A DNA stretch of 64,000 nt, from contig NC_134031.1 in NCBI RefSeq assembly GCF_964204645.1, forward strand, positions 12,526,088 to 12,590,087, in the 5' to 3' direction. The notes below the pieces were generated by a model that searched no databases, had not been told where the DNA came from, and worked only from the letters and a program-made list of their open reading frames with translations. The position numbers and the translations under genes were made by a program. Shown here one piece after another: positions 1 to 27,032 of this stretch (positions are counted from its first letter, which is position 1; the number at the start of each line of letters is the position of its first letter). This DNA is from Tubulanus polymorphus (lineage: Eukaryota; Animalia; Nemertea).

Positions 1-2
1 AA

Positions 3-662
3 GAATTTTATAACAAACATTTTAAAAAACTATTAACTGATAACGATGTAGAATATTTTTCAACACATTCAGATAAAAAAGCATCTGTTATAGAAAGATT
101 TAATAAAACATTGAAAACTAGAATGTGGAAATATTTCACCGCTAATGAAACATATAAATATATCGATGTGTTAGATGATTTAGTTAAAGGTTATAATAAT
201 TCTAAACATAGTTCTATAAATATGAAACCTATACAAGCTAGAAAAGAAGAAAATTCAGAAATAGTTTGGAATAATTTATATGGAGCATTTGTTACACATG
301 ATTTTGGAGAACCTAAATTTAAAATAGGACAACATGTTAGAATTTCTAAATATCGAAAAACATTTTATAAAGGTTATACCCCTAATTTTACAGAAGAAAT
401 ATTTAAAATTAAAAAGATAATATTAACTAAACCATTTGTTTATAAATTGTTTGATTTAAAAGATGAAGAAATATTAGGTTATTTTTATGAACAAGAATTA
501 TCATTAGTACCAAATCCAGATGAAATAGAATACAAAATAGAAAAGGTATTGAAAACAAAAACTCTTAAAGGAAAAAAGTATTCTTTGGTGAAATATAAAG
601 GATATGATGATAAATTTAATGAATGGATTTTATCTAGTAAAATTAAAAGAATAAATGAATAA
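3..662 (+). CDS. Retroviral-like (c-)integrase with C-terminal chromodomain, 5' truncated by window edge
   Basis: Frame open from nt 3 (EFYNKHF...KASVIERFNKTLK, containing the DDE glutamate); C-terminal IEKVLK...LVKYKGYDDKFNEWI chromodomain; near-identical to 30152-30991. Confidence 0.93.
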   Translation, partial: EFYNKHFKKLLTDNDVEYFSTHSDKKASVIERFNKTLKTRMWKYFTANETYKYIDVLDDLVKGYNNSKHSSINMKPIQARKEENSEIVWNNLYGAFVTHDFGEPKFKIGQHVRISKYRKTFYKGYTPNFTEEIFKIKKIILTKPFVYKLFDLKDEEILGYFYEQELSLVPNPDEIEYKIEKVLKTKTLKGKKYSLVKYKGYDDKFNEWILSSKIKRINE

Positions 663-1269
663 AGATTTATTTATATTTGAACCACATAATATGTTAGTTA
701 CTGGAGTTACAAATTGTGGTAAAACACACTTCATATTAGACTTGTTAGAAACTATTTATAAGAATCATTTTGATAATATAATATTATTCTGCCCAACTTA
801 TGAAATGAATGAAACGTATAATAGAGATATAGTTTTTAAAGATAAAAAGTTTATTATATTAAATTCTAAAACAGTGAAAGATAATTTAGATAATTGTATA
901 AAAATTGCATTAGATATTTATAAAGGATCTAATACATTATTTATTATCGATGATTGCGCAAATTTACATGATTCTAAAATTAGAGAAAGTGAGTTATGTT
1001 ATTTAGCTTTCTCTGGGAGACATTTTGGGATAACAACTTGGGTTTTAAATCAGAAATATAATTCAATTGTGAAAGACTTTAGAGAGAATATAAGATTTCT
1101 AGTTTTATTTTATAACAAAGATAGAAAATCTATGCAACAATCATTGGAAGAAAATCAAATTATACCTCCTGAATTACATGATGAATATATGAATAAATTA
1201 AAAAATAATAAAGGTTCCAAATTACTTATGAGATTACAATTTCCATATGAATATAAATTTATAAAATAA
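655..1269 (+). CDS. A32/FtsK-HerA-type genome packaging ATPase
   Basis: Walker A GVTNCGKT, Walker B FIIDD, and GRH...LNQ...REN motifs; 204 aa. Confidence 0.92.
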   Translation: MNKDLFIFEPHNMLVTGVTNCGKTHFILDLLETIYKNHFDNIILFCPTYEMNETYNRDIVFKDKKFIILNSKTVKDNLDNCIKIALDIYKGSNTLFIIDDCANLHDSKIRESELCYLAFSGRHFGITTWVLNQKYNSIVKDFRENIRFLVLFYNKDRKSMQQSLEENQIIPPELHDEYMNKLKNNKGSKLLMRLQFPYEYKFIK

Positions 1270-1286
1270 AATCCTAATTCAAAATA

Positions 1287-1660
1287 TTATAGAATTCATT
1301 GTATACTGATAGATGAGTGGATGAATTGGATGAATTGGATGAATTGGATGAGTGGATGAATGGATGAGTGTAATAATATATAATTTACATATGTTTTTTA
1401 TTTTTAAAACAGTAAGAGTTTGATTTGAAGTTATTTTATCAATTTTATACTATATTTAAATATTATTTTAATAATATATATATTGTGTTAAATTTAATAA
1501 AGAATAAAAATATTATATTTATACTCATACTATTCTTCCAATTTATGTGTTAAAAAGTAAAATATATATATTATTATACTCATCCACTCTTCCACTCATC
1601 CAATTCTTCCAACTCATCCAACTCATCCATTCATCCATCAATATACAGTGAATTCTATAA
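1287..1660. repeat. Imperfect inverted repeat with 9-bp GGATGAATT/GGATGAGT minisatellite arms between convergent genes
   Basis: TTATAGAATTCATTGTATA (1287) pairs with TATACAGTGAATTCTATAA (ends 1660); GGATGA(A/G) repeats at 1314-1368 mirror (C/T)TCATCC repeats at 1578-1638. Confidence 0.85.
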
Positions 1661-1665
1661 TCTTT

Positions 1666-2697
1666 TTAATTTTCATTTTCATATTTTTCTTTAAGCTTAT
1701 TGTATTCTAAATATATATCCCTTTGCATTTTCTTTGGTATAATTCCTAAATAATTCTCGAGTTTATATTTCCTAAATGTTTCTCTTGAAAATATTTTTGG
1801 AATATAATTTTCGATTTCAGTTTTAGATGGATGTTTATTTAAAAATTCTCTAAAATCATCATATTTAAGTTCAAATAAGTTCATTGCATAAGTTACATTT
1901 GGTTTAAAGTTATCTAACTTTTTCAATACGGTTACTATATCATTACTCAATAAATAATCTATAAATGTTTTTCTATACCACCGATAATCTAATATATTCT
2001 TATTATTAAATTTTGGATTTATAACTGTTGGATTTTCTATTACATTATCTGTACCAATATGTTTAATTGAGTATTTATGATTCAATTGTTTATCATATAT
2101 TACATATTCTTTACATTTTTCACACCAAGATTTAAATACTTGTATTGCATGGGCTGAATCATTTCCACCTTTTGTTTTTAATTTATAATGTTTTGCCCAA
2201 TTAGCCTTTGTTATACATTCATTACAGAAGGCACAATAATTCTGATCCTCTTTGCATTTATCTTTATATATATTGGCATATGTTTTTACTAATTGTAAAA
2301 TATGTTCATCTTTTTTGATGTGTAATAAATAATCATTATAATTATCAAAATCTTCTTCACAATACATACATCTAATGTTATCTTTTGGTTGAACATTTGA
2401 TTTTTCTATTTTAGGTTCAATATTATATTCTATTTTTGTTTCAATCTTATCATCATTCGATGTAGAAGGTATAACATTATCTTCTATTTTATATTCAATA
2501 TCATTCTTATCTTCTATTTTAGGTTCAATATTATCTTCTATTTTTGTTTCAATATTCTTATCTATTTTACTTATTCTATATTTGAATTGATTAAAGTAAT
2601 CTCCAAAATACTTACTGTATTCATCATAAGGTAATATATAATATATATCTGATATCATTTCACTTGGAGATTGTATTTCATATATTCCACCTTCCAT
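1666..2697 (-). CDS. Maverick accessory protein with three C2H2/U1-like zinc fingers and IEPKIED-type repeats
   Basis: CMYC...HIKKDEH, CAFC...HYK...H, CEKC...HKYSIKH; intact 343-aa ORF with TAAATG start. Confidence 0.75.
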   Translation of the reverse strand: MEGGIYEIQSPSEMISDIYYILPYDEYSKYFGDYFNQFKYRISKIDKNIETKIEDNIEPKIEDKNDIEYKIEDNVIPSTSNDDKIETKIEYNIEPKIEKSNVQPKDNIRCMYCEEDFDNYNDYLLHIKKDEHILQLVKTYANIYKDKCKEDQNYCAFCNECITKANWAKHYKLKTKGGNDSAHAIQVFKSWCEKCKEYVIYDKQLNHKYSIKHIGTDNVIENPTVINPKFNNKNILDYRWYRKTFIDYLLSNDIVTVLKKLDNFKPNVTYAMNLFELKYDDFREFLNKHPSKTEIENYIPKIFSRETFRKYKLENYLGIIPKKMQRDIYLEYNKLKEKYENEN

Positions 2698-2729
2698 TTA
2701 ATATAAGATTTTTTATTAAAGTTAAAATT

Positions 2730-3977
2730 TTAATACATAACACTATCTAATTGTGAATTTACAATATTTAATTGCGCATCAGATATAATATAAATGTGCA
2801 TTTTAAAATTTTTGATTCCTTTTTTCTTTGTTATGAATAATTGTATTCCATCTTTAGTGTTTTGTAGTTTTTTTCCAGAACCATGTAATAAGTTATCTTC
2901 AGTTGTTCTAAAATCTAACCATAATGCATATTTATTACCGGTATAATAATCAATTTGATTAATATTACAATTTTCAAATGATTTTATTTTTTCATTCATA
3001 AAATGTTTTCTAATTTCTGGCCATTGATCAATCATTCTCATTCCTTGACAAAATATTTTATTCGCTATTCCTTCGATAGTTATTTCTACTTTTGTTATTT
3101 CAGGATTATAATAATCGTCAACATTTATTGCACCATTAGTATACGTTCCAATGGTAAAAAATATTAATATACCTTTAATAGATCTTCTAGGAAAGTTAAT
3201 ATTCTCATTAATTATTTCATCATTTGCATTAATAGTTACAGTTTTAAATTTATCAATATAATCATATAATAATGAAAACCCTTGATTGTATTGAGTTTGA
3301 ATTATACTTGAAATATTTTCATCAGTTACTGTATCATATTCTAAACATATATTCGATAATTTATAACTCATATCTTTATTAACGCTAGATAATACAATTT
3401 CATTTACAGGAGCAAATGTTATCTCAAATATAATATCTTCTTGAATTGCGTATTTATATAAAGGTGCATTATTATTTATCAATTCAAAGTCTAATGGAAT
3501 TTTATATTTGCTTCCATATATACTTTTTATCAATTTATCTACATCATTTGTTAATATTGCGCTATTAGCTTCTGATCTTAATTTATTTTGGTTTTCTGAT
3601 TGAATTCCTTGAAATATCATATTATTTCTATTTTCTTTAGTTAACCATAAATCTTTATAATGCATAAATAAATTATAATCATCTAATGAGAAAACTGTTT
3701 CTGGACCAATCTTTATTGTTAACTTTTTAATCAAATATCTTCCAACATTATCAACGACATAATTATTATTATTACCGATTACTTTTATATCAGCTGATAA
3801 ATAAATACTATTTGGAACATAAAAAGTATTTTGTGTTAATCTAGGAATTCTAACATATAAAGTTTCATCAGGATTAATATTAGAAGGGTTATGAGTAATT
3901 ATATGATGTGATCTTTCTGCTTTAATAGCATTAGATATTCTATGATTCTTCGAAGGACTTATATAACTCCCACTCAT
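2730..3977 (-). CDS. Major capsid protein (double jelly-roll, hexon-like)
   Basis: 415 aa, beta-rich; HNPS..NP.ETLYVRIP, LSNICLEYD, IN.PRRSIKGIL and YALWLDFRT..DN.LHGSG motifs recognised from invertebrate Polinton MCPs; size and position fit. Confidence 0.85.
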   Translation of the reverse strand: MSGSYISPSKNHRISNAIKAERSHHIITHNPSNINPDETLYVRIPRLTQNTFYVPNSIYLSADIKVIGNNNNYVVDNVGRYLIKKLTIKIGPETVFSLDDYNLFMHYKDLWLTKENRNNMIFQGIQSENQNKLRSEANSAILTNDVDKLIKSIYGSKYKIPLDFELINNNAPLYKYAIQEDIIFEITFAPVNEIVLSSVNKDMSYKLSNICLEYDTVTDENISSIIQTQYNQGFSLLYDYIDKFKTVTINANDEIINENINFPRRSIKGILIFFTIGTYTNGAINVDDYYNPEITKVEITIEGIANKIFCQGMRMIDQWPEIRKHFMNEKIKSFENCNINQIDYYTGNKYALWLDFRTTEDNLLHGSGKKLQNTKDGIQLFITKKKGIKNFKMHIYIISDAQLNIVNSQLDSVMY

Positions 3978-4021
3978 TTATTTAACAAAAAAATTAATTA
4001 TTTATTTTTTGATATCATGGT

Positions 4022-5731
4022 TTACTTGATATTTTTTGATATCATATTTACTAAACCAAAAATAATAGCACTTACAACTGTAATTAAAAATAAAATAATA
4101 TGTTCAGCAGCAAAGTTAATAATGTTTCCTGCAGATTTCAATATAAAACCAACAATTGAAGCAATAACTCCTGGTAAAGCTGCAGCAGATTTTTTAGATA
4201 GTTCCCATAAATATTTTGCTAATTTCTTTAAACCATCTTTAACTTTATCTTGTATAGAATTATTGCCTGGAGGTTTATCTGGTTTATTGGGAGTAGGAGT
4301 AGATTTTAAAGCATTTGATATAGCTAAACCAATTGTTGTAAATAACATAGTTACAGCTGTTACAATTGAAAGAATTGTTATTCCTTCTAACTTAAATAAT
4401 AACTTTATTCTGTCTTTTAATGATATTTCAGAATCTGGTTTTATCAACAAATCTTTAAAAATAACTTTTAATTTTTTAATATGATTAAGATCATATGATT
4501 TTAATAATATATCTCTTTCTTCTTTTTGTAATTTTATGTTATATTCTAAATCATCTATTTCTTTTACTAAAGCTAACTTTCTGTTTTCATAATCAGCTTC
4601 ATAAACTACTTGATGATCTCTATTTAATTCTAATTGTTTTAATTCTTCATCTACATTAACTAATTCTTTTTCTAACATGGTTATTTTAGAAAATCTCATC
4701 TTAATATTAGCAATTTCATCAGCTGATACTTGTATACCTTTAATTTCTCTACGTATTTGTTCAGGAAATGTTTCTAATTCTTCATCAGTTAAATTAAGAA
4801 ATCCTTTTTCTAGTAAATATTGCAGTCGATTTATTCCAGTTTCAGAACCAGATGTATCTGATATACTATTCATCAGTTCTTCTGAATCTCTTAATCTATC
4901 AATTTGTTTTTCTAATTGTAATTGATTTGAATAATTATCAATTGGTTGAGTGTCTCTTCTCGATGTTTCGGGTGTTGAAGATCTTAATCTATCTAATCGA
5001 TTTCTATTCTCTTCCATTTCTGGATCAAAATCAGTAGGATTTGGATTTTTAAATGGATTTTTAAATGGTGAATATTTGTTTATATCAATATTCGGAATTG
5101 GTTCTTCTTTATTTATTCTATTGAGTGCATTCCATATAATTCTGAGAAATTCTGTGCCACCTTTTGAACGTTCAATTGTAGATCTTGCTCGCATTTCAGG
5201 TTCATAAATATTTTCTTGACCCATTTTAGATAATTGAATTGATACAATTTTGTTATTTAAATTAACATTATAATACCATGAATCATTTTTAAATTCTAAA
5301 TTATTTGTGAAATATGGGTCATCCTTAAAAATTTGTTCTACAACATCTTCAGTATCAATTTCATCTATTACAACTGTTGGTAATAATTCGTTAACAATTG
5401 TATCTGTTACTCTAGATTTCATTTTAAATAATTCCATAGGTTTATCAGGATTTTTTTCTTGTTGTTTTACTAATAGTTCCATAAATTCTTTTCTTTCTCT
5501 TCTAGTTGAAATTCTACCAATTTCAGGAGCTTTTAAATATTTATTTAATCTTTCACGTAATTCGGGATCATCATCATCATAATCATCATCTTCACCTAAA
5601 TTAGTATTATATGCTGATTCATTATCATTATCGATATTAGTTTCTGCATCATTATAATCATTATCAATATATCCTTCATTATTATTTCCCATTTCTCCCA
5701 TTTCATAATCTTCTCCACCTTCTACATCCAT
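4022..5731 (-). CDS. Maverick protein with acidic N-terminus, coiled coil and C-terminal multi-helix hydrophobic region (putative membrane/entry protein)
   Basis: 569-aa intact ORF; hydrophobic ITILSIVTAVTMLFTTIGLAI, GVIASIVGFIL and IILFLITVVSAIIFGLV segments; homolog at 32638-33645. Confidence 0.75.
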   Translation of the reverse strand: MDVEGGEDYEMGEMGNNNEGYIDNDYNDAETNIDNDNESAYNTNLGEDDDYDDDDPELRERLNKYLKAPEIGRISTRRERKEFMELLVKQQEKNPDKPMELFKMKSRVTDTIVNELLPTVVIDEIDTEDVVEQIFKDDPYFTNNLEFKNDSWYYNVNLNNKIVSIQLSKMGQENIYEPEMRARSTIERSKGGTEFLRIIWNALNRINKEEPIPNIDINKYSPFKNPFKNPNPTDFDPEMEENRNRLDRLRSSTPETSRRDTQPIDNYSNQLQLEKQIDRLRDSEELMNSISDTSGSETGINRLQYLLEKGFLNLTDEELETFPEQIRREIKGIQVSADEIANIKMRFSKITMLEKELVNVDEELKQLELNRDHQVVYEADYENRKLALVKEIDDLEYNIKLQKEERDILLKSYDLNHIKKLKVIFKDLLIKPDSEISLKDRIKLLFKLEGITILSIVTAVTMLFTTIGLAISNALKSTPTPNKPDKPPGNNSIQDKVKDGLKKLAKYLWELSKKSAAALPGVIASIVGFILKSAGNIINFAAEHIILFLITVVSAIIFGLVNMISKNIK

Positions 5732-5747
5732 TTACATAATAAAAAAA

Positions 5748-7136
5748 TTAAAATTTAAAATATAATATTCCTCCGATTACAATTCCTATACAAGTTATAG
5801 CTAATTTAGTGTTTTCATGGGATTTATTATCATCATTTAGTGTAATTATATCATGTTGAATAATATCAGTTCTATTATTTTCTGATGTATTATAATATTT
5901 TATTTTAGAATCATTATTTAATTTAATATTCTTAGTTTTAGTTTCTGTTGATTGAATATGTTTTTTATTTTTTTCACCTTCCATTAATTTTGGAGTAGTG
6001 ATAATCTTTTTATTTATATCATTTAACCCAAATGAATTATTTATTGTCGCAGTTTTAATTAGATTATTATAACCAATTATATTTCCCATCTTTAATACTA
6101 AATCATTAGAAATAATTAATAGATTAGGGCCTATACAATAATTAAGTCTTACATGAGATTTATCTAAATAATTTTGATATCTTATAATGTTTTCTGGAAT
6201 AGATCTATTTTTATCATTATGAATTGAATCTTCAAATAAAACTTTAAATTGTTTTTGTGTATCGAATGATGTATTCAAATTTCCAATTATCGGTGATCTT
6301 GTTTCAACTTGTGATCCTAGAATACAAATCAAATAAGTTCTAATAGATTGATTTATTCTTTCTATACCTGATTTAGTAAAACCTTCACTATTTTCTAAAA
6401 TAAAATAAACCCAACCATTATTGTTTTCTTGTTTTAAATTATCATAAAATTTTGGTAATTTATTGAAATTTAATGTTTCTAAATCCTTTGTTTCTATTTT
6501 ACCATAACCTAATTTTTTATTATAGATATTATAAAAACTATTAGATGGTATGGGAAGTGCACAATATTCTGCAATCTTTCTAGGGCAAGGAAGTGATCTT
6601 ATTGTTCCAATTTTTATTCTAAAATCAGAATTATTTATATCTATATTAAATTCATTACAAATCTTATAAAACTTAGATAAATTAATATTATTATCCAATT
6701 CTTTGAAATACCTAGATCCTGGTAAAGCGCACTCTAATTCATTTAATATTATTCTGATTTGAAAGTATGTATGAAATCTAAATAAACTTTGAATTAGTTT
6801 ATATTTAGAATTATTCAAATGATCATTCCAACTAATTCCACATCCTGTTGTTGCACAATAAACAGCAAAATTTAATTGATTCTGCCAATACTTCATATTA
6901 GATTTTAATAACCATTGTTTTTCATCTTTCAATTTTTTAAAATTAATTAAATATACATGAAATATATTTTCCATCTTTGCATTAAAATTATTAGTTTCAG
7001 TAACATAAATTTCTAAATTAGTTAATGAATCTAAAACTTCATTTCTATATGTAATATCTTTATTAAAATCTATTGCTGGAATATTATATTTAATTGATTT
7101 ATTATATCGGAAAGTTTTTGGAAAACTATCTACCAT
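5748..7136 (-). CDS. Conserved Maverick hypothetical protein with C-terminal membrane anchor
   Basis: 462 aa; WQNQLNFAVYCATTGCGIS and LFRFHTYFQIR motifs; C-terminal LAITCIGIVIGGILYF; closely similar copy at 31242-32615. Confidence 0.8.
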   Translation of the reverse strand: MVDSFPKTFRYNKSIKYNIPAIDFNKDITYRNEVLDSLTNLEIYVTETNNFNAKMENIFHVYLINFKKLKDEKQWLLKSNMKYWQNQLNFAVYCATTGCGISWNDHLNNSKYKLIQSLFRFHTYFQIRIILNELECALPGSRYFKELDNNINLSKFYKICNEFNIDINNSDFRIKIGTIRSLPCPRKIAEYCALPIPSNSFYNIYNKKLGYGKIETKDLETLNFNKLPKFYDNLKQENNNGWVYFILENSEGFTKSGIERINQSIRTYLICILGSQVETRSPIIGNLNTSFDTQKQFKVLFEDSIHNDKNRSIPENIIRYQNYLDKSHVRLNYCIGPNLLIISNDLVLKMGNIIGYNNLIKTATINNSFGLNDINKKIITTPKLMEGEKNKKHIQSTETKTKNIKLNNDSKIKYYNTSENNRTDIIQHDIITLNDDNKSHENTKLAITCIGIVIGGILYFKF

Positions 7137-7152
7137 TTATATAATTAAAAAA

Positions 7153-7587
7153 TTAATAATTTATTAATTCTTTTAATAATTTATCTTGTTCTTCAACTGT
7201 TATATGACCATTTAAACTTATTATATAATCTAGTGTGTTCTTTAATTTATTAATTTCTTTTATATTAGTTTTAATTTTTTCTTTATTACTTTTTATATTT
7301 AATTTTGAACTTATACCAGTTAAAACACTTGAACTTAATCCTAACACACCAATTGATATAGCTAAAGGTGTTAATGGACTGAATATTGCTAAAAATGTTA
7401 TTACAGAACTAATTGTAACCGAACCACTTATAATCAAATAATATATAATTTTACTTTTTAAATATTTTTTCTTTTTAATCTTTAAGTCACTTTCAAATTC
7501 TAATATTTGTTTTTCTAAATATGTTTTTAATCTAGTTTTATTTATATCATGAGGAATAATATCAATATTATCAACTTTATCTTCCAT
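7153..7587 (-). CDS. Small two-TM Maverick protein
   Basis: 144 aa with a central hydrophobic hairpin flanked by lysine-rich helices; TAAATG start. Confidence 0.75.
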   Translation of the reverse strand: MEDKVDNIDIIPHDINKTRLKTYLEKQILEFESDLKIKKKKYLKSKIIYYLIISGSVTISSVITFLAIFSPLTPLAISIGVLGLSSSVLTGISSKLNIKSNKEKIKTNIKEINKLKNTLDYIISLNGHITVEEQDKLLKELINY

Positions 7588-7607
7588 TTATTTAGCAAAA
7601 AAAATTA

Positions 7608-8030
7608 CTAATTAGTAAACTTATAAGCAACAAATATAACAATAACAGTTCCACCTAAAATCCAAATTATTTCATATTTCTGTTGTTCTTTACTTGGGGT
7701 ATAATAATCTGATAATTTGGGTTTGTATAGATGTAATTTTTCTTTATTTGTTACTGCGTTATATAAACTCATTGCATCATCAACTGATTGAAAATCTCTA
7801 TGTGAAATCTTCTGATCATATAATTCTTTATTGATGTAATCCATATAGTTTTGCCTCTTTTCTCTATATTCTTCCGCTGCTTTATTGTATTTCTCTAACG
7901 CTAAGTTATGTCTTCTTTGTTCTCCTAATGAACTATTTTTATCAATATGTTTAAATAAATAACCACCACCAGTAAATGCTAAAGCGTTAACAATTGCTGA
8001 TCCTATAATAGTTATAATTGCAGAAGCCAT
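7608..8030 (-). CDS. Small Maverick protein with N- and C-terminal hydrophobic helices
   Basis: MASAIITIIGSAIVNALAFTGG...EQRRHNLALE...IIWILGGTVIVIFVAY; 140 aa; TAAATG start. Confidence 0.78.
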   Translation of the reverse strand: MASAIITIIGSAIVNALAFTGGGYLFKHIDKNSSLGEQRRHNLALEKYNKAAEEYREKRQNYMDYINKELYDQKISHRDFQSVDDAMSLYNAVTNKEKLHLYKPKLSDYYTPSKEQQKYEIIWILGGTVIVIFVAYKFTN

Positions 8031-8054
8031 TTATTTAGCAAAAAAATTATGCAT

Positions 8055-8276
8055 TTATATGGGAGGAATATATTTTTGTTTTTCCAAATAATCAATAGTT
8101 AAATTAGATAAAGTAACTGCTAATGTTAACTTTAAAATATCATTTATATCAAATCTATCAACATTAACACTTCCCATTTTGAATACTTTTTTTAATACCA
8201 TTGAATAACCAACAGTTCCAACTGATAGTAATGCGCCATTATATAATCCAGTTATTATCCACTTATTATCACTCAT
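8055..8276 (-). CDS. Small hydrophobic Maverick protein
   Basis: 73 aa, two hydrophobic segments, DYLEKQKYIP end; T7-N6-TAAATG start. Confidence 0.7.
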   Translation of the reverse strand: MSDNKWIITGLYNGALLSVGTVGYSMVLKKVFKMGSVNVDRFDINDILKLTLAVTLSNLTIDYLEKQKYIPPI

Positions 8277-8618
8277 TTATTTATCAAAAAAATTACTATC
8301 TTCAAAATATTTAGTTAACTTATTTATGATTAATTCAACATTTATTTCATTACTAGTTTTATGATTATCATATATTTTGGATAATATGTTTTTAATATCT
8401 TCAATAATTCCATCTTCATTTAATTCATAATATTCTGAAGGTGATTTAATTAAATCAATTACTTTTTCTATATTATACTTTTCTTTATCAATCATTGATG
8501 CATTGTTAAATGATTTACTTTTTATATCAGTAATTACATCATTTAGTTTAATTCTCATTTCTTTACCATGTTTAAAATCAAATCCAAAACATATACTCGG
8601 TCCAACAGTTATATTCAT
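8277..8618 (-). CDS. Maverick hypothetical protein
   Basis: 113-aa ORF abutting its neighbours, TAAATG start; no motif recognised. Confidence 0.6.
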   Translation of the reverse strand: MNITVGPSICFGFDFKHGKEMRIKLNDVITDIKSKSFNNASMIDKEKYNIEKVIDLIKSPSEYYELNEDGIIEDIKNILSKIYDNHKTSNEINVELIINKLTKYFEDSNFFDK

Positions 8619-8634
8619 TTATATAGGTGAAAAA

Positions 8635-9393
8635 TTACTCTTTACATCTTATAACTAATTCATAAATTACAGGAAAGTTATTCAAATCAATTAAGTATCC
8701 ATTATGATTTCTAATTTCTAATCTAAAATTATTAAAACTAGGAATGCATGGTTTGAAATCACATTCTGTTAAATTATAATTTATTTGCGTTCCAAATTCT
8801 TTAACATTTTTTAATGGTAAAATATTTAATATACTAGAATTACATGTTGTATCTTTAGTTGCTTCAAATGTTTTTGTTGGGTCAATTAAATTGCAATAAA
8901 TATAAAAATGTGTAAAAGGTATTATATTTGAAATACCTTCTACGTTTACTGTAACAACATCTGGTTCAATTCCTAGCAATTTAGCTATAGGTTTTTTTAC
9001 CATAAATGCATGTTGACTTTCATCAAATACCTTTATTTTAATTCTATTTGAGCTATCACTTTTTATAAATCTTATTAAAAATTTATCATCTTTTCTAATT
9101 TTCAACCGTGCTCTACGATTAATTTCTTGAGATAATGTTTCTAAATTATATAATCCTGGTCTTAGAAATAGATGAAACCATTTATTTATATTTCTAATAT
9201 GAATTAAAAAAGTATTATGTTCAATAGTTTTATTCGATATATTATAAAAAGAATTACATAAACTTATATTTACTAATTTTAAATCTACACAATTCTTGAA
9301 TTCTCTATCTAATTGTACTAATAAATTATGAGATTTATAATTTGTAAGTTTTCTAGAATCTACAAATATTCTGTATTCTTTTAATTCCACCAT
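8635..9393 (-). CDS. Minor capsid protein (penton-like, single jelly-roll)
   Basis: IFVDSR...NSFYNI...PGLYN...FYIYCNLI...ILNILP...LEIRN.NG.LIDLN pattern of Polinton pentons; 252 aa. Confidence 0.78.
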   Translation of the reverse strand: MVELKEYRIFVDSRKLTNYKSHNLLVQLDREFKNCVDLKLVNISLCNSFYNISNKTIEHNTFLIHIRNINKWFHLFLRPGLYNLETLSQEINRRARLKIRKDDKFLIRFIKSDSSNRIKIKVFDESQHAFMVKKPIAKLLGIEPDVVTVNVEGISNIIPFTHFYIYCNLIDPTKTFEATKDTTCNSSILNILPLKNVKEFGTQINYNLTECDFKPCIPSFNNFRLEIRNHNGYLIDLNNFPVIYELVIRCKE

Positions 9394-9410
9394 TTATTTT
9401 ACATACTTTC

Positions 9411-9752
9411 TTATTCGAAATCTATTTCATGGTGCCCTTTTTCATTCTTACCTTTGTATACGAAATAGAAATCTCCAGAACATAATTCTTCTAGATCTTC
9501 ACTTGATAATCTATGAAATCTATCTGGTAAATAAGTTCTGAATTTATATTTATTTCCTTTTAATCCTTCATATTCTAAATGAATTACTAATTTATCTCCA
9601 TATTTATTAGTAATTGTTTCAATGTTAGTAATTAAATATTTCTTGTGAATTGTTAACTCAGTTAGTTTTTTAAATTTATAATCTACAGATTTGACGCTTG
9701 AAGTATCTTTAATTCTATCTAAGAATTCACTGTGTACTTGTTTACTCTCCAT
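9411..9752 (-). CDS. Small protein next to pPolB, possible OB-fold ssDNA-binding protein
   Basis: 113 aa; TNKYG..LVI.L....F...YLP.RF beta-rich aromatic pattern; function inferred only. Confidence 0.55.
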   Translation of the reverse strand: MESKQVHSEFLDRIKDTSSVKSVDYKFKKLTELTIHKKYLITNIETITNKYGDKLVIHLEYEGLKGNKYKFRTYLPDRFHRLSSEDLEELCSGDFYFVYKGKNEKGHHEIDFE

Positions 9753-9780
9753 TTATTATACAAATTTTTATTGAAATTGA

Positions 9781-12020
9781 TTAACACGCTAGAATCCTTT
9801 TCATAATCTCATTTTCTTTTGTTTCTTCTCTTTTGAATTTTATATATTCATCTAAATTGCAACCATAGGCGACTGTGTGGATTCCATCATCTAAAATATA
9901 TCTTTTATCATCAAATGGATTCAAACTTATCTTCTCTATCTCTTCAATATACATTTCATGATCTTCAGATCTTAAACATTTCATCTTATGTTTTCTAACT
10001 TCTTCATTAAATATACAATTGATGTAATCTTTGAAATGAATATTCTTTTCTACTACACTTTTGGTTATTCCTTTTAACTTTTTAGCTTCATGTTCTTTAG
10101 TTTTATATGAATACATTTTAGATCTAATACCTATGAACTCTATCATTTCTTCACCACCTAATTCATCCTTAAACTTCCCAGGAACTTTTTTATTATCATT
10201 GGTAAACAATTCATGATTTTTTGGATAATTACTAAAATCAAAATGGTGTTTTAATGTTTTTAAATCATCTGTTATGTTATCAGTTTTTATCTTTAATATG
10301 TAAGAATCTGTATCAAAATATAAGATTTCTATGTGTTTTTCTCCAAAATGAGGTTGTAATATATTATAATAGAATTCATACATTAGTAATTTTGATAATT
10401 CTAAAACTGCAGCTCCAACATAAATCGGTTTATTAAATTTCATAGAAGTCCTTTTTAATTTAACTGCTGCTAAATTTTCATCGAATATTCTATTACCTAT
10501 AAATTTCGGATACGATTGTAAATGTCTAATTCTTTTACCATTACTAACTAACTCAATATCATTTCTATTTCTAATATTTTCACAAGTCTTACCATAGAAC
10601 GCATTGTTCATTAACTTAAAAAAATCTTTTTCAAAATCAGTTTTAGATTTAGTTCTCTGTGTAGTATTAAAATCTATATATTTTTCTAACCATTTAGATT
10701 GACTGAATGAAATATATCTATGTACTTTTTTTAATATCATTCCTTGATTTAGATAAAACTTCAACATTCTATAATGCACAACGTAATTATATTTATCTTC
10801 TTGAGTTACCATTAACTTTTCAGTATGAATATGATTATCGGGTTTAATTCTTTTTTGATAATTTGATAATTCTTCATGTTTAACAGTTTTATGTTCGGGA
10901 CAGTAAGCTAGATTTCTAGATTTGAATTTAATATTTTCAGGATATTCTAAATCTACAACAAAGAAGTAACCAGTATCTGAATCATCTGCAATATCTAGGA
11001 TTCTTTTCTTCCAATCAAATTTATCAATTTGTAAAACTTCAGTTATTTCAAACATCCCATAAGGTTGTGGTTCCATCAACTTATTATAGCCCATAGAAAA
11101 CATTTATCATCTTCATTTTGTATATTTATTACACCATTAGTTTTAAATGGTAGTTTAATATAACTTGTTCCATTTATACTATCATCTTTATAATATGATA
11201 AATTATTTTCATCAATTGGTTTTGATTTAGTTAACTTATTATATTTTGTGTTATAAACATGTAAAGTTATAAATATTATCTCATCAAATATTAAACCAGA
11301 TCCTTCAAAATATTTCTTTTCTATTTTAGTTTTTATTTCATTATAACATTTATCTAATTTATCATCTATATGTTGTTTAGATATAATATGTTGTGAATGA
11401 GAATTTATATTATATATTGGTTTATCTTCAGATTTTATAAACTTTACTTTAACTGATATACTAATTTTTGGATATTCAACATCTGTAATTATTTTTATTA
11501 TTTCTTTCATATTTTCTAAATGTTTTTTATTTTCTTCTAATGTTTTACCTTTATGAAATTTAAACTCAATAGCTGCTGGACCAATATCACTTTTAAATGC
11601 TTCGGTTATTTCTATATCTTTTTTATTATCTAATGAATTTATATAATTTCTTACATCTTCCATATATGGTCTTTTATTGTTTAATTTATTTTTTATTCTT
11701 TTAATTGCGCTTTGTTTCTTATCGTTATCATTATCAAAATAATCTTCACCTATAATATCATTATTCTTATTTCTAATATGACTTATAGATTTTAAATGTT
11801 CTTTATAATATCTTTTATCACTGAATGATTGATTACATGTATCACATTTGTATGTTTCTTTTTCATCCTTTAATTCTTCTAATTTAGTTTCTAATATATC
11901 ATCTTTATACTCTAGTTTCAATTTATTCTCTAAATGTGTTCTAGTTTTATTGTGTCTTGCTTTTTGGGATTTATCTATATCGATATTACATGTTAGACAG
12001 TAGTACTTATTTGCTTCCAT
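9781..12020 (-). pseudogene. Protein-primed family B DNA polymerase with a ~1.78-kb internal deletion (two ORFs, 11076-12020 and 9781-11103)
   Basis: KLMNNAFYGK, YFDTDS and K.Y motifs present; motif A (DANNLY), exonuclease and EndoVII-like parts are missing relative to the Mav2 copy; junction at ~11077. Confidence 0.92.
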
Positions 12021-12102
12021 TTTAATACTAAAATTTTTATTAAAATTGATTTTAGAAGTTCAATGATTTAAATGTTATTCATATATATATGAATATTTTA
12101 AG

Positions 12103-12508
12103 AGTAATAGGGGTAATAGGCTTTCATATCAAAGGTTTAATGATCGAGTTCATTAATAACATATATTAAAAGTAATTAAAAAACTATAATATATTTTCAT
12201 AACCGCGTGCATTTCAGTTGAATAATAGAATAATTATTATCATTTGAATATATTTGATTATTTGAATTTGTGTATTGTAATTAAATCAATTGGTCGCGGA
12301 GCGGAGCGGTAGCGAAGTGGAGCGACCAATTGATTTAATACAATATGCTTTTTATATTATTGATATCTTAGAATAAATATTTAGTTTTGATATAAAATGC
12401 ACGCGGTAATGAAAATATATTATAGTTTTTTAATTACTTTTAATATTTTGTTTTTTAATGGGCTCGACCGTTCGACCTTTGGTATGAAAGCCTATTACCC
12501 CTATTACT
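12103..12508. repeat. Terminal foldback (406 bp) of Mav1
   Basis: AGTAATAGGGGTAATAGGCTTTCA...TGAAAGCCTATTACCCCTATTACT; apex stem AAATCAATTGGTCGC/GCGACCAATTGATTT. Confidence 0.93.
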
Positions 12509-13935
12509 ATCGCCCGCGACAATTCATTAATTTGGTTTTGTCACCCGCGACAAAACAATATTTTGGTTTTGTCGCCCACGACAATTCACCATTTTGGTTT
12601 TATCGCCCGCGACAATTCATTATTTTGGTTTTATCGCCCGCGACAATTCATTATTTTGGTTTTGTCGCACGCGACAATAGCGACAATTCAAGATTTTGAT
12701 TTTATCGCCCGCGACAATTCATTTTTTGGATTTGTCGCCCACGACAATTCAATATTTTGGTTTTATCGCCCGCGACAATTCATTATTTTGGTTTTATCGC
12801 CCGCGACAATTTTTTTTTCTTTTTGTCGCGGTTTTATCGCCTGCGACACTTCAATATTTTGGTTTTATCGCCTGCGACAATTCATTATTTTGGTTTTATC
12901 GCCCGCGACAATTCATTTTTTTGGTTTTATCGCCCGCGACAATTCATTAGTTTGGTTTTGTTGCCCGCGACAATTGAATATTTTGGTTTTGTCGCCGGCG
13001 TCAATTCAATATTTTGGTTTTATCGCCCACGAAAAATCACTACTTTGGTTTTATCGCCAGCGACAATTCATTATTTTGGTTTTGTCGACCGCGACAATTC
13101 TTCTTTTTAGTTTTGTCGCCCGCGACAATTCATTATTTTGGTTTTGTTGCCTGCGACAATTCACCATTTTGGTTTTGTCGCCCGCGACAATTCACCATTT
13201 TGGTTTTGTCACCCGCGACAATTCACCATTTTGGCTTTGTCACCCGCGACAATTCAATATTTTGGTTTTATCGCCCGCGGCAATTCATTATTTTGGTTTT
13301 ATCGCCCGCGACAATTCATTATTTTGGTTTTGTCACCCGAGACAATTCATCATTTTGGTTTTATCGCCCGCGACAATTCATTATTTTGGTTTTGTCGCCC
13401 GCGACAATTCACCATTTTGGTTTTGTCGCCTGGACAATTCACCATTTTGGTTTTGTCGCCCGCGACAATTCATTATTTTTGTTTTGTTGCCCCCACAATT
13501 CTTTTTTTGGTTTTGTCGCCCGCGACAATTCATTAGTTTGGTTTTGTCGCCCGCGACAATTCAATATTTTCGTTTTATCGCCCACGACAATTCATTACTT
13601 TGGTTTTATCTCCAGCGACAATTCATTATTTTGGTTTTGTCGCCCGCGACAATTCTTCTTTTCGTTTTGACACCCGCGACAATTCATTATTTTGGTTTTA
13701 TATTTTGTTTTTGTCACCCGCGACAATTTTTTTTTTGGTTTTGTCACCCGCGACAATTCATTATTTTGGTTTTATCGCCTGCGACAATTCAATATTTTGG
13801 TTTTATCGCCCGCGATAATTCATTATTTTGGTTTTATTGCCCTGTGACAATTTATTATTTTGGTTTGTCGCACGAGACAATTCATTATTTTGGTTTTATC
13901 GCCCGCGACAATTCATTATTTTGGTTTTGTCGCCC
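12509..13935. repeat. ~30-bp satellite array (TTTTGGTTTT(A/G)TCGCCCGCGACAATTCATTA)
   Basis: Dozens of head-to-tail diverged units with no unique spacers. Confidence 0.97.
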
Positions 13936-13938
13936 TAA

Positions 13939-15094
13939 GAAAATTTTGAAGACGCTTTGATCAATTACCTTGATGATCTTTCGTTTGTATTTGAATCTAC
14001 CAAAGGTCCATCAGCATAAGAAAATTGGGTCGATCTGACTCAAGATGGCCGTCCTATGACCTTTTTAGTGCCCAAAAATGTCCATTTTGGCCAGAATTCT
14101 AGGTCCTGTAGCTTCCTACTGGTTTGCCATTTCTCATTGCAATTGCTGATGGATATTCTTTAGAGAGGGATGCTTTATACCTGGGACAGGTATTTTTGAT
14201 CAGCCAATTATGACGCAATTGGCGGCCATCTTGGTGTCATCAGTACTCATTCGTAGGTGGGAAAAAGTTTTTCCACAATTAATTGATACCTAAGCATATT
14301 GTGTTACTATATTCAATTGGAAAGTTGTAGCCCATAATGTGTTCTATGATTTTGGTGAGTTTCAAGGTCATTGGTTTTTGTATATGGCCATCAGGGGGCG
14401 TTGAATAATACAATAACTTAGTATCGCTATATTATATTTGTACCAAGGCATATTTTGTTACCATGATCGATGGCAAAGTTGTAGTTCATGACATCGTCTA
14501 TGATTGTGGTGAGTTTTTAAGGACATTAGTTATTCCATATAGTCACCAGGGGGCGTTGAATAGTAGAAAAGCTTAGTTTTTCCTTATTAGATTGGTACCT
14601 AGGCATAGTTTGTTACCATGATCCATTGCAAAGTTGTAGTTCATGACATCGTCTATGATTGTGGTGAGTTTTTAAGGACATTAGTTATTCCATATAGTCA
14701 CCAGGGGGCGCTGAATAGTAGAATGGCTTAGTATTTCCTTATTAGATTGGTACCTAGGCATATTTTGTTCCTATGATCAATTGCAAAGTTGTATTTCATG
14801 ACATGTACTACGATTGTGGTGAGTTTTGAGGTCATTTGGTTTTGCATATGGTCACCAGGGGGCGTTGAATAGTAGAATAACTTAGTATTTCCATATTAAA
14901 TTGGTAACGAGGCATATTTTGTCATCACAATCAATTACAAAATCATAGCTGCTCACATTTTCTATGATTGTGGTGGATTTCAAGGTCATTGGTTTTTGTA
15001 TATGGTCACTAGAGGGCGTTATGTATTGAAATTGTTAGATTGTTGAGCATTTGAAACCACTGCCCAAGTGAGCATGGTGTCCCTGGACCCCTAG
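13939..15094 (+). mobile_element. Non-autonomous Helentron/DINE-1-like repeat (family HINE-1), truncated, with ~154-bp internal tandem repeats
   Basis: Ends in subterminal IR CCCAAGTGAGC, a short hairpin and CTAG before TT; about five 154-bp units (CCAGGGGGCGTTGAATA); same family on the opposite strand at 51933, ~57296 and 61628. Confidence 0.75.
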
Positions 15095-16368
15095 TTTGGT
15101 TTTGTCGCCCGCGACAATTCATTATTTTGGTTTTGTCGCACGCAACAATTCAATAGTTTGTTTTTGTCGTCTGCGACAATTCATTATTTTGGTTTTATCG
15201 CCCGCAACAATTCATTATTTTGGTTTTATCGCCCGCGACAATTTTTTGTTCTTTTTGTCGCGGTTTTATCGCCTGCGACACTTCAATATTTTGGTTTTAT
15301 CGCCTGCGACAATTCATTATTTTGGTTTTATCGCCCGCGACAATTCATTTTTTTGGTTTTATCGCCCGCGACAATTCATTAGTTTGGTTTTGTTGCCCGC
15401 GACAATTGAATATTTTGGTTTTGTCGCCGGCGTCAATTCAATATTTTGGTTTTATCGCCCACGAAAAATCACTACTTTGGTTTTATCGCCAGCGACAATT
15501 CATTATTTTGGTTTTGTCGACCGCGACAATTCTTCTTTTTAGTTTTGTCGCCCGCGACAATTCATTATTTTGGTTTTGTTGCCTGCGACAATTCACCATT
15601 TTGGTTTTGTAGCCCGCGTCAATTCACCATTTTGGTTTTGTCACCCGCGACAATTCACCATTTTGGCTTTGTCACCCGCGACAATTCAATATTTTGGTTT
15701 TATCGCCCGCGGCAATTCATTATTTTGGTTTTATCGCCCGCGACAATTCATTATTTTGGTTTTGTCACCCGAGACAATTCATCATTTTGGTTTTATCGCC
15801 CGCGACAATTCATTATTTTGGTTTTGTCGCCCGCGACAATTCACCATTTTGGTTTTGTCGCCTGGACAATTCACCATTTTGGTTTTGTCGCCCGCGACAA
15901 TTCATTATTTTTGTTTTGTTGCCCCCACAATTCTTTTTTTGGTTTTGTCGCCCGCGACAATTCATTAGTTTGGTTTTGTCGCCCGCGACAATTCAATATT
16001 TTCGTTTTATCGCCCACGACAATTCATTACTTTGGTTTTATCTCCAGCGACAATTCATTATTTTGGTTTTGTCGCCCGCAACAATTCTTCTTTTCGTTTT
16101 GACACCCGCGACAATTCATTATTTTGGTTTTATATTTTGTTTTTGTCACCCGCGACAATTTTTTTTTTGGTTTTGTCACCCGCGACAATTCATTATTTTG
16201 GTTTTATCGCCTGCGACAATTCAATATTTTGGTTTTATCGCCCGCGATAATTCATTATTTTGGTTTTATTGCCCTGTGACAATTTATTATTTTGGTTTTG
16301 TCGCACGAGACAATTCATTATTTTGGTTTTATCGCCCGCGACAATTCATTATTTTGGTTTTGTCGGCC
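15095..16368. repeat. ~30-bp satellite array (second block)
   Basis: Same unit; variant order copies the first block at an offset of ~2432 bp. Confidence 0.97.
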
Positions 16369-16371
16369 GAA

Positions 16372-17524
16372 GAAAATTTTGAAGACGCTTTGATCAATTA
16401 CCTTGATCTTTCGTTTGTATTTGAATCTACCAAAGGCCCATCAGCATAAAAAAATTGGGTCGATCTGACTCAAGATGGCCGTCCTATGACCTTTTTAGTG
16501 CCCAAAAATGTCCATTTTGGCCAGAATTCTAGGTCCTGTAGCTTCCTACTGGTTTGCCATTTCTCATTGCAATTGCTGATGGATATTCTTTAGAGAGGGA
16601 TGCTTTATACCTGGGACAGGTATTTTTGATCAGCCAATTATGACGCAATTGGCGGCCATCTTGGTGTCATCAGTACTCATTCGTAGGTGGGAAAAAGTTT
16701 TTCCACAATTAATTGATACCTAAGCATATTGTGTTACTATATTCAATTGGAAAGTTGTAGCCCATAACGTGTTCTATGATTTTGGTGAGTTTCAAGGTCA
16801 TTGGTTTTTGTATATTGCCATCAGGGGGCGTTGAATAATACAATAACTTAGTATCGCTATATTATATTTGTACCAAGGCATATTTTGTTACCATGATCAA
16901 TGGCAAAGTTGTAGTTCATGACATCGTCTATGATTGTGGTGAGTTTTTAAGGACATTAGTTATTCCATATAGTCACCAGGGGGCGTTGAATAGTAGAAAA
17001 GCTTAGTTTTTCCTTATTAGATTGGTACCTAGGCATAGTTTGTTACCATGATCCATTGCAAAGTTGTAGTTCATGACATCGTCTATGATTGTGGTGAGTT
17101 TTTAAGGACATTAGTTATTCCATATAGTCACCAGGGGGCGCTGAATAGTAGAATGGCTTAGTATTTCCTTATTAGATTGGTACCTAGGCATATTTTGTTA
17201 CTATGATCAATTGCAAAGTTGTATTTCATGACATGTACTACGATTGTGGTGAGTTTTGAGGTCATTTGGTTTTGCATATGGTCACCAGGGGGCGTTGAAT
17301 AGTAGAATAACTTAGTATTTCCATATTAAATTGGTAACGAGGCATATTTTGTTATCACAATCAATTACAAAATCATAGCTGCTCACATTTTCTATGATTG
17401 TGGTGGATTTCAAGGTCATTGGTTTTTGTATATGGTCACTAGAGGGCGTTATGTATTGAAATTGTTAGATTGTTGAGCATTTGAAACCACTGCCCAAGTG
17501 AGCATGGTGTCCCTGGACCCCTAG
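16372..17524 (+). mobile_element. HINE-1 repeat, duplicate of 13939-15094
   Basis: Near-identical sequence at an offset of ~2430 bp. Confidence 0.8.
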
Positions 17525-17832
17525 TTTGGTTTTGTCGCCCGCGACAATTCATTATTTTGGTTTTGTCGCACGCAACAATTCAATAGTTTGTTTTTGTCGT
17601 CTGCGACAATTCATTATTTTGGTTTTATCGCCCGCAACAATTCAATATTTTGGTTTTAACGCCCGCGACAATTCATTATTGTGGTTTTATCGCCCGCGAC
17701 AATTCATTATTTTGGTTTTATCGGCCGCGACAATTCATTATTTTTGTTTTGTCGCCCGTGACAATTCAATATTTTGGTTTTGTCACCCGCGACAATTCAT
17801 AATTTTGGTTTTGTCGCCCGTGGTTTTGTCGG
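17525..17832. repeat. ~30-bp satellite array (third block)
   Basis: Same unit, fading into unique sequence at ~17830. Confidence 0.95.
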
Positions 17833-18204
17833 AACATTAAGTTTTTGGTCGAACAGTGTGATAAGGTTGTTTTGGAAATTTACTCGGTCTGGTATATTTT
17901 GGATTACTGTGTACGTCATTTGTCAGGACATTAAACAGAAGACGACTTAGGATACTACCTTGCGTGACTCCTCTAGTTAGACCGTCTCACTCCAAGATGA
18001 GGCGTTCCGTTGATTTCGGTTACAAGTTTCCGTTCAGAGATAACTGCTGTGCCATTTGGGCGACCTATCATTGATACTGTTTCCTAATAGCCTGTTCAGT
18101 AATGGCTGATGTTGAGCCTTATCAAATGCTTTGTTGAAATCCACCGTTGAACAGGATTCTAAGACTGTGCAGAAAACCCGTTATCGCTGCTTTGCAGCTA
18201 TATT
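17826..18204 (-). mobile_element. Terminal segment of a satellite-bearing repeat (HINE-3) containing a degraded non-LTR reverse transcriptase fragment
   Basis: Minus-strand reading VDFNKAFDK...LL.RL...W..SYL / GVTQGSILSRLLFNVLTND; end AATATAGCTGCAAAGCAGC hairpin; homolog at 57779-58150. Confidence 0.7.
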
Positions 18205-21200: not shown

Positions 21201-21678
21201 TGTTTTTCCTTTATGAAATTTAAACTCGATAGCTGCTGGACCAATATCTTTTAAATGCTTCGGTTATCTCTATATCTTTTTTATTATCTAATGAATTAAT
21301 ATAATTTCTTACATCTTCCATGTATGGTCTTTTATTGTTTAATTTATTTTTTATGCTTTTAATTGTCTTCTGTTTCTTATCATTATCTTTATCAAAATAA
21401 TCTTCACCTTAAATATCATTATTCATATTTCTAATATGACTTTTAGATTTTAAATGTTCTTTATAATATCTTTTATCACTGAATGATTGATTACATGTAT
21501 CACATTTGTATGTTTCCTTTTCATTCTTTAATTCGTCTAAGTTAGTTTCTAATATATCATCTTTATATTCTAATTTCAATTTATTCTCTAAATGTGTTTT
21601 AGTTTTATTGTGTCTTGATTTTTGGGATTTATCTATATCTATATTACATGTTGGGCAGTAGTACTTATTTGCTTCCAT
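18204..21678 (-). pseudogene. pPolB pseudogene (zinc fingers, OTU-like segment, exonuclease, EndoVII/HNH-like insert, polymerase motifs A-B)
   Basis: YGDFES, FHNLSGYDAH, YLKSDV, YIDANNLYG, KLMNNAF; CYYC...DHDH..GKFRGAAH..CN; NEDDKCFLW...HYMWIK; several stops and frameshifts; 3' end cut at ~18204. Confidence 0.93.
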
Positions 21679-21911
21679 TTTAATACTAAATTTTTTATTA
21701 AAATTGATTTTAGAAGTTCAATGATTTATATCATGTATTATTTCAATCACACTTTACTAACACTTTTAATGTTTAAAAATCTAACTCATACAAATATAAA
21801 TATTGAAATAATGTTTAAAATATATCTATATATCTATTCTATAAGAGCTTACACTTTTATATTGAATAATCTGTCAATTTAAATGTTATTCATGTATATG
21901 ATTATTTTAAG

Positions 21912-22318
21912 AGTAATAGGGGTAATGGGCTTTCAGGTTAAAGGTTGAATGGTCGAGTTCATTAAAAACAAATATTAAAAGTAATTTAAAACTATAATAT
22001 ATTTTCATAACCGTGTGCATTTCAGTTGAATAATAGAATAATTATTATTATCAAAATATATTTGATTATGAATTTGTGTATTGTAATAAATCAATTGGTC
22101 GCGGAGCGGAGCGGTAGCGAAGCGGAGCGACCAATTGATTTAATACAATATGCTTTTAAAATTAAAATTATTAATATCTTAGAATAAATATTTAGTTATA
22201 ATATGAAATTCACACGGTTAAAAAAATATATTATACTTTTAAATTACTTTTAATATTTTGTTTTTCAATGAACTCGACCGTTCGACCTTTGATTTGAAAG
22301 CCCATTACCCCTATTACT
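21912..22318. repeat. Terminal foldback (407 bp) of Mav2
   Basis: AGTAATAGGGGTAATGGGCTTTCA...TGAAAGCCCATTACCCCTATTACT. Confidence 0.93.
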
Positions 22319-22681
22319 TATAACAAAGATAGAAAATCGATGAAAAATACGCTTGAGGAAAATGATATTATTCCACATGATTTACATAATGAATATATGG
22401 ATAAATTGAAAAATAATAAAAGATCAAAATAACTATTCATATTACAACACCCATTTAAATATGAATTTATTTAAACTCAACTAGCTTGTTAATCTAGTTG
22501 AATTCTAGTTACATTCTAGTTGAAATCTAGTTATTGGTAGTTGAAACAAAAATCAACTAGATTTAACGAGAAATAAATTAAAACAACAATATTTCAACTA
22601 GCTTGTTAATTTAGTTGAATTCTAGTTACATTCTAGTTGAAATCTAGTTGCAACAACACAACTAATTTGTTTGTTATATAA

Positions 22682-23220: not shown

Positions 23221-23221
23221 A

Positions 23222-26652: not shown

Positions 26653-26832
26653 AGTAATAGGGGAATGTGGCTTTCAGGCCAAAGGTCGAGCTCGTAAAAA
26701 ATGAAAATAACAATAATTTCCAGTTGAATTAGTCGCGCACACTCCTAATTCAACTAGAAATTATTGTTATTTTCATTTTTTACTCACTCGCCCCTTCAAC
26801 CTTTAACCTGAAAGCCACATTCCCCTATTACT
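26653..26832. repeat. Terminal foldback (180 bp) of Mav4
   Basis: AGTAATAGGGGAATGTGGCTTTCAGG...CCTGAAAGCCACATTCCCCTATTACT; inner stem AAAAAATGAAAATAACAATAATTTC/GAAATTATTGTTATTTTCATTTTTT. Confidence 0.93.

Positions 26833-27029: not shown

Positions 27030-27032
<3 letters not shown>

Follow-up and report, generated by a model that had tools for sequence, protein, structure and literature searches.

A stretch of 64,000 nucleotides (nt) from the nemertean Tubulanus polymorphus (contig NC_134031.1, positions 12,526,088 to 12,590,087; hereafter the window, whose own coordinates are used below) contains a Maverick/Polinton element whose genes open with a motif resembling the late promoters of poxviruses. 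Judged from the sequences compared here, this pox-late-like promoter extends across a lineage of animal-type Mavericks and is a real and new variation on the endogenous virophage theme. We propose, with moderate confidence, that the motif is a pox-type post-replicative promoter read by the polymerase of a co-infecting pox-like large DNA virus, which would make these elements an endogenous virophage-like lineage. Dependence on a helper of any kind appears likely. Animal Mavericks lack an RNA polymerase, and the motif bears on how they are transcribed and whether they are autonomous. If our proposal is true, the virophage way of life, and possibly an inducible and inherited antiviral defence, extends from protists to animals.

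Start-site motif of the Maverick element

All 11 non-polymerase starts of the element carry TAAATG (655, 2697, 3977, 5731, 7136, 7587, 8030, 8276, 8618, 9393, and 9752), as the original prediction had it, against a background of about 10%: TAA precedes 27 of 265 ATGs in sense (starts included) and 15 of 147 in antisense (1661-12060). Six of these genes (3977, 5731, 7136, 7587, 8030, and 8276) display the longer pattern TAA-T6-8-N6-7-TAAATG. They had been described as structural or membrane genes; the pattern holds in all six, whereas only the gene starting at 3977 is shown to be structural. When both strands of the entire 64 kb are considered, the relaxed pattern TAA-T5-9-N5-8-TAAATG has eight matches, each at a gene start: seven in this copy and one where the capsid gene of another copy begins (33686). 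Likewise, six of the nine sense-strand runs of at least six T are promoter sites of this kind, which we call T-type. At 8276 the motif is maintained within the last codons of the upstream gene (SNFFDK*), as claimed, and the same overlap is found in a relative, L003.

A second variant, which we call A-type, consists of TAAAAA-N9-TAAA and precedes the polymerase, zinc-finger, and SSB-like genes. An upstream A-run had also been assigned to an HNH gene (27144), which belongs to another copy; its upstream region is an inverted copy of that of the polymerase (85% over 87 nt), so it is not an independent case. Positions -13 to -10 from TAAA are pure TTTT (seven) or AAAA (four) in 11 of 12 window starts, where column shuffles expect 1.7, so both upstream variants are genuine within this sub-lineage. 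The split fades in more distant relatives (8 of 45 against 2.9). These runs are position-specific and were present at 4 of 79 non-start TAAATG sites in close relatives, and T at -10 is present in 7/7 T-type window starts, 0/5 other window starts, and 44/60 starts across relatives.

The open reading frames (ORFs) of the element in the window (1-12508), with lengths in amino acids (aa), are as follows.

1..662, + strand: retroviral-type integrase with chromodomain, 3' part (Chromo match; start outside the window)
655..1269, + strand: A32-like packaging ATPase (Pox_A32, E 1.8e-12); TAAATG at 652-657, A-type core
1666..2697, - strand: 343-aa Cys/His-rich accessory (zinc-finger) ORF, without a Pfam match; promoter AATAAAAA-N9-TAAATG at 2695-2717
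2730..3977, - strand: double jelly-roll capsid protein (AlphaFold and Foldseek); T-type promoter
4022..5731, - strand: 569-aa conserved ORF, family in 19 loci; T-type promoter at 5729-5750
5748..7136, - strand: 462-aa conserved ORF, family in 14 loci; T-type promoter at 7134-7155
7153..7587, - strand: 144-aa ORF, weak match to the SLATT two-helix membrane family (E 0.0038, below cut-off); T-type promoter at 7585-7607
7608..8030, - strand: 140-aa conserved ORF, family in 29 loci; T-type promoter at 8028-8049
8055..8276, - strand: 73-aa conserved ORF; T-type promoter at 8274-8295, within the last codons of the upstream gene
8277..8618, - strand: 113-aa ORF; T5 promoter (T5-N8) at 8616-8637
8635..9393, - strand: 252-aa conserved ORF, family in 10 loci, presumably a minor capsid protein; A-like core at 9391-9415
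9411..9752, - strand: 113-aa candidate SSB-like ORF; promoter AATAAAAA-N9-TAAATG at 9750-9772
9781..12020, - strand: protein-primed DNA polymerase B, broken; promoter AATAAAAA-N9-TAAAATG at 12018-12041

The element is an integrated multi-copy Maverick/Polinton, with the hallmark protein-primed polymerase, retroviral-type integrase, double jelly-roll capsid, and A32-like ATPase. The capsid model (pLDDT 82.7) matched the capsids of PBCV-1, iridovirus, and mavirus in Foldseek (E 2e-16 to 2e-10); the 462-aa ORF gave a poor model (pLDDT 53) with no fold match. A sister integrase (30152-30991), 94% identical to 3-834, combines Chromo with an rve match just below the cut-off (E 1.3e-6), and the polymerase of a sister copy matches DNA_pol_B_2 (E 3.6e-12). 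The window polymerase is internally deleted, with about 620 central codons missing near 11080: tblastn with the full-length polymerase of L067 recovered residues 175-242 and 863-1266 only, the equivalent of 243-862 being missing. For the SSB-like ORF, Phi29 SSB is the closest Atlas cluster to which a family is assigned (score 0.85), which is a lead only.

The motif across related Mavericks

A capsid alignment led to 80 metagenome loci. With the window this made 81 sequences, of which 67 had sufficient length for a quick tree. Starts were counted when the N-terminus aligned with that of a full-length homologue, and 55 of the 67 sequences contributed such homology-checked starts. TAAATG was found at 45 of 51 starts in group A, which contains the window, at 9 of 9 in group B, and at 6 of 7 in group C (60/67 in total), and at none in groups D (0/34), E (0/68), and F (0/15; 0/117 in total). 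The tree on which these groups were drawn already displayed the counts. Groups C and D interleave, which means that their separation follows the motif. Two to four changes of the trait are required on a tree of 29 rows. Four of the seven misses in groups A-C still have TAAAT or TAAAAT at most 1 nt from the ATG. As far as these starts indicate, the motif is a lineage trait of capsid groups A, B, and C.

Base composition does not explain this pattern, since TAAATG is found at 0 of 35 starts in the 12 negative loci of 26-36.5% GC and at 34 of 37 starts in positive loci of at least 29% GC, and it persists at 40-44% GC. The comparison with AT-matched controls proposed along with the original prediction came out in favour of its pox-late reading (0/35 in AT-matched negative loci against 60/67 in the positive groups).

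The most fixed upstream base is T at -9, present in 81 of 97 TAAATG starts (a set that includes a few spurious ORFs) and in 51 of 164 non-start TAAATG sites. Start codon contexts also differ: the negative groups have a Kozak-type purine at -3 in 100 of 117 starts, and the positive groups have T. Head-to-head genes with TAAATG on both strands are separated by gaps of only 28 and 30 nt (L008 and L010) and 15 nt (L034).

Several other features of these relatives were observed. In group D (L015-L019 and L045), a TATA lies at most 18 nt from the ATG in 28 of 34 starts and a TATAG at most 20 nt away in 17, an arrangement similar to the late initiator of asfarviruses, and L016 of this group has a weak Pox_VLTF3 match (6543-7049, E 6e-4). 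The close relative L003 encodes a deoxynucleoside kinase (dNK; 10343-10981, - strand) with a T-type TAAATG start. A cluster of capsid relatives with 54% identity (P0046) is annotated as Bartonella proteins on short contigs; these are probably host DNA in the assemblies, hinting at a lineage that reaches terrestrial hosts. The family is large, with 3402 proteins at E 0.001 in a profile search. IMG/VR protein scans with capsid, 462-aa, and ATPase queries returned no relatives, and a GTDB scan returned three short loci that were not used.

Comparison with poxviruses and other giant viruses

In the available parts of the vaccinia literature, the late consensus is T at -10 followed by TAAATG, and the intermediate consensus is TAAAAA-N14-TAAA (PMC11423596 Table 1, from which the strings are taken second-hand; PMC11980589, PMC5294985). 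The Mavericks share with the vaccinia promoters described there a TAAATG over the start codon, a T tract 6-7 nt upstream, and short divergent promoters. A match to both consensus sequences had been proposed. The late one stands, as all seven T-type window starts conform to it. The A-type window starts agree with neither, their spacer being 9 nt in 3/3 cases instead of 14, and among 97 starts the A runs end mostly 9-11 nt away, with none at 13-17.

Two Maverick-derived patterns were scanned over IMG/VR, yielding 22 loci with one and 108 with the other, flanks being available for 80 of these 108. We ranked 85 viral loci with at least five ORFs by their share of TAAATG starts, after removal of the start by which each had been selected. 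The top four were poxvirus loci (0.75-0.89), and the best non-pox locus reached 0.5. These four represent one orthologous region (L177 is A11-A17 by Pfam, and the remaining three were assigned to it because their N-termini match). One more pox locus, L159, had 2/5, so that the pox comparison consists of five 8-kb loci. Pooled, the pox loci had TAAATG at 30 of 38 starts, not distinguishable from the Mavericks (60/67, p 0.16), and non-pox giant viruses had it at 24 of 70, distinguishable from them (p 2e-11), p values that overstate independence because four of the five pox loci are orthologous and the Maverick loci are related. Poxvirus A11 is preceded by a 14-nt gap with TAAATG on both strands.

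The motif family extends beyond poxviruses. Many starts of the non-pox giant viruses G001, G002, and L097 have a T tract and TAA(A)ATG, which may represent a late promoter not yet described. G001 (L185, L215, L216) displays TAAATG at 18 of 50 starts with a T-rich stretch at -12 to -8, and iridovirus-like loci at 6 of 20. One of the giant viruses, G002 (L089, L217), is iridovirus-like; its capsid is closest to 6ojn and 8hif (E 2e-115), the latter an iridovirus capsid. By these sequence counts, the motif family is wider than the poxviruses, while its strictness in Mavericks matches that of pox.

The poxvirus early terminator TTTTTNT was considered as further evidence and rejected: it is depleted in the coding strands of positive loci (24 against 41.8), and the AT-rich negative loci show a depletion too (15 against 21.5). 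AATAAA, depleted in neither motif-positive nor AT-rich negative loci, was dropped.

A putative helper virus and competing explanations

Under our proposal, the promoter would consist of an A/T core, a T nine bases upstream, and TAAATG over the start codon, and a cytoplasmic large DNA virus that co-infects the cell, most likely pox-like, would supply the RNA polymerase. Transcription would start within the AAA of TAAAT, and polymerase slippage would add a 5' poly(A) leader, replacing the non-Kozak T at -3. In vaccinia, initiation in TAAAT with slippage produces such a leader, according to the available text of PMC6211774. The leader would place A at -3 in the mRNA, so T could be tolerated there in the DNA. 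Each gene would be its own monocistronic unit, placed back-to-back with its neighbours and lacking a templated 5' untranslated region, and only infection by a helper would awaken the element, as CroV does with mavirus. Consistent with the earlier remark that the element has no visible RNA polymerase gene, 95 protein scans of the window and its relatives, no complete element among them, gave no match to RNA polymerase, TBP, or TFIIB, so the machinery would come in trans.

Several points weigh against a pox-like helper, beginning with the relatedness of the compared loci described above. The most conserved T lies at -9 in Mavericks (54/60) and at -10 in pox loci (23/30, with -9 in 15/30), and Mavericks have A at -14/-15 more often (60-68%) than the pox loci do (6 and 13 of 30); a helper would thus differ from the sampled chordopoxviruses. 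Iridovirus-like and other giant viruses have the T tract and TAA(A)ATG as well, including a head-to-head pair 29 nt apart, and the Mavericks yielded no gene of pox origin. Neither a helper virus nor a transcript or 5' end has been observed; most conserved ORFs are unannotated and could include a self-encoded factor; and an integrase-bearing element must also reach the nucleus. The original interpretation stands in part. Its pox-late reading draws support from conservation across the lineage, the AT-matched negative loci, the head-to-head pairs, the agreement with the vaccinia late consensus, and the top rank of genuine poxvirus loci; a pox-like helper is likely, but the likeness is not exclusive to poxviruses.

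One alternative, which we consider unlikely, is autonomous nuclear transcription, in which a factor of the element or host recruits RNA polymerase II and the pox likeness reflects shared ancestry or convergence. The TATA-bearing starts and the weak VLTF3-like ORF of sister group D would fit this idea, as would the many core ORFs without assigned function. However, conserved families of this kind are also found in motif-negative groups, and the TAAATG groups lack matches to TBP, TFIIB, or polymerase in the scans above. Moreover, no leader remains when a TATA-like box adjoins the ATG, position -3 is T, and divergent gaps of 15-30 nt offer little room.

It is also rather improbable that help comes from a giant virus outside the poxviruses, iridovirus-like or other, with similarly shaped late promoters. 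The looser version of the motif carried by iridovirus-like giant viruses means that the helper need not be a poxvirus; G001, the iridovirus-like loci, and the G002 capsid near 8hif all lend themselves to this view. So does the dNK of L003, as dNK is a core gene in iridoviruses; this kinase had no close viral relative and led to no helper. Against it, non-pox giant viruses use TAAAATG nearly as often as TAAATG (16 of 70 starts, pooled over all their starts, so that late genes alone could score higher), whereas the pox loci (0/38) and Maverick groups A-C (0/67) do not use it.

We regard a post-transcriptional role of the motif as very unlikely, be it in stop-start coupling, as a poly(A) signal for the gene upstream (through an AATAAA that overlaps TAAATG), or as a trans-splice acceptor. 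TAA is indeed the upstream stop at 8276, and AATAAATG is found in 27 of 60 starts. Nevertheless, AATAAA is missing from the other 33, the upstream stop of tandem genes is 16-44 nt away in 9 of 10 cases, and none of the seven T-type window starts has an AG between T-run and ATG. Head-to-head genes have no upstream gene end, so that TAAATG on both strands of 15-30-nt gaps excludes signals of an upstream gene; together with the persistence of the motif at 40-44% GC, this argues against coupling and poly(A) signals. Finally, we know of no plasmid of the yeast virus-like element (VLE) type in animals, and the T-run geometry fits pox late promoters, which makes transcription in trans by the RNA polymerase of such a cytoplasmic linear plasmid, with a TAAAN initiator and slippage, most improbable. 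VLEs do have a TAAAN initiator and poly(A) leaders, as far as described in the available text of PMC6211774.

Returning to the pox-like helper, we tentatively extend it to a broad animal Maverick lineage, which may consist of germ-line endogenous virophages of pox-like viruses, switched on by the late machinery of the invader, with sister groups tuned to other helpers or to self-encoded factors. If so, the start-site motif of a Maverick predicts the large DNA virus of its host, here an undiscovered pox-like virus of invertebrates, a group that would include further unsampled members.

Two promoter variants and expression timing

The original prediction inferred a two-stage programme, with A-type intermediate promoters on replication genes followed by T-type late promoters on virion genes. 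This part fared poorly, and a true two-stage programme is doubtful. Besides the mismatch of spacers (9 against 14 nt), the packaging ATPase (655) and the 252-aa ORF (9393) also carry an A-type core, so this class is not limited to replication genes. In addition, the class switches among orthologues. Across the lineage, the integrase is T-type in 3/3 cases, the capsid (n=20) is T in 13, A in 4, and mixed in 3, the 140-aa gene is T in 4, A in 4, and mixed in 2, the HNH family is T in 3/4, and dNK is T-type; the SSB-like gene is A-type in the window and T-type in L003. The closest relatives mostly preserve the class of each gene, but no link between class and function holds lineage-wide. The promoters of HNH and polymerase are two copies of a single end module. 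A T tract on one strand of a divergent pair reads as an A tract on the opposite strand, so both classes can arise without a timing code. We read the two cores as variants of one architecture that perhaps differ in strength or timing.

Relation to known systems

The element has much in common with the adintoviruses as presented in the available text of Starrett et al. 2021 (PMC8502044): protein-primed polymerase, rve-chromodomain integrase, A32-like ATPase, double jelly-roll capsid, and integration in multiple copies. It differs in its large terminal palindromes. No adenain-type protease match was seen in the ORFs of the window or in the scanned ORFs of relatives, part of the element lying beyond the window; this protease is a usual, not universal, feature of Mavericks/Polintons. 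The same accessible text does not mention "promoter" or "helper".

Mavirus and EMALE04 with CroV (PMC10945749) and Gezel-14T with PgV (10.1101/2022.07.28.501842) are, in the accessible portions of these reports, likewise integrated, without RNA polymerase, and equipped with a large-virus promoter motif. Those elements have protist hosts, Imitervirales helpers, and other motifs, and their dependence is shown, while that of the Mavericks is inferred. In Cafeteria, promoter sharing predicts inducibility (PMC10945749, available part). Among animals, Polinton-like viruses found in entomopoxvirus occlusion bodies have been proposed as poxvirus hyperparasites (Barth et al. 2024, PMC11296320). As far as its available text goes, an integrase is not detectable in those bearing PolB, a protease is present in all four, and promoter, motif, TAAAT, or upstream are not mentioned. 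The difference from vaccinia lies in the peak T (-9, not -10) and the A-run spacer. Our literature search, which left subscription papers largely uncovered, found no paper joining Polintons with TAAAT(G).

Copies, termini, and neighbouring sequences

The window holds the right-hand part of the element (1-12508), with about 22% GC in surrounding host DNA of 36-41% GC. In a DNA run under the same species label, core genes have a read depth of 350-1070 at 88% likeness and low-copy host bins one of about 4-15 at 96%, suggesting roughly 100 copies under these differing thresholds. The 343-aa ORF is present in few copies (depth 27-44). The terminus is placed at 12508, where 1670 reads depart from the reference into unlike flanks. 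This is the one end mapped, the second lying beyond the window; in another copy, this end module is found ahead of the HNH gene.

The element end is an imperfect palindrome of about 400 bp with inverted arms (12103-12508). Similar palindromes lie at 21912-22318 (about 400 bp) and 26652-26833 (about 180 bp), and both long ones start and finish with an identical terminal motif. They could be relics of hairpin ends, junction relics, or nested miniature elements. A 31-bp tandem array interleaved with 155-bp repeats adjoins the element end (12509-17830).

Further copies, rearranged and broken, occupy 18202-23710 and 26650-44000. Eleven of their starts were examined: seven have TAAATG as called, two have TAAAATG, and one more has TAAATG at 22682; their integrase start has TAAAATAAG before the ATG. 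One of these two copies is interrupted by a Gypsy long terminal repeat (LTR) element (about 34440-42470), with a duplicated LTR at 42867. Animals account for 10 of the 12 named genera among the matches to this neighbouring Gypsy element.

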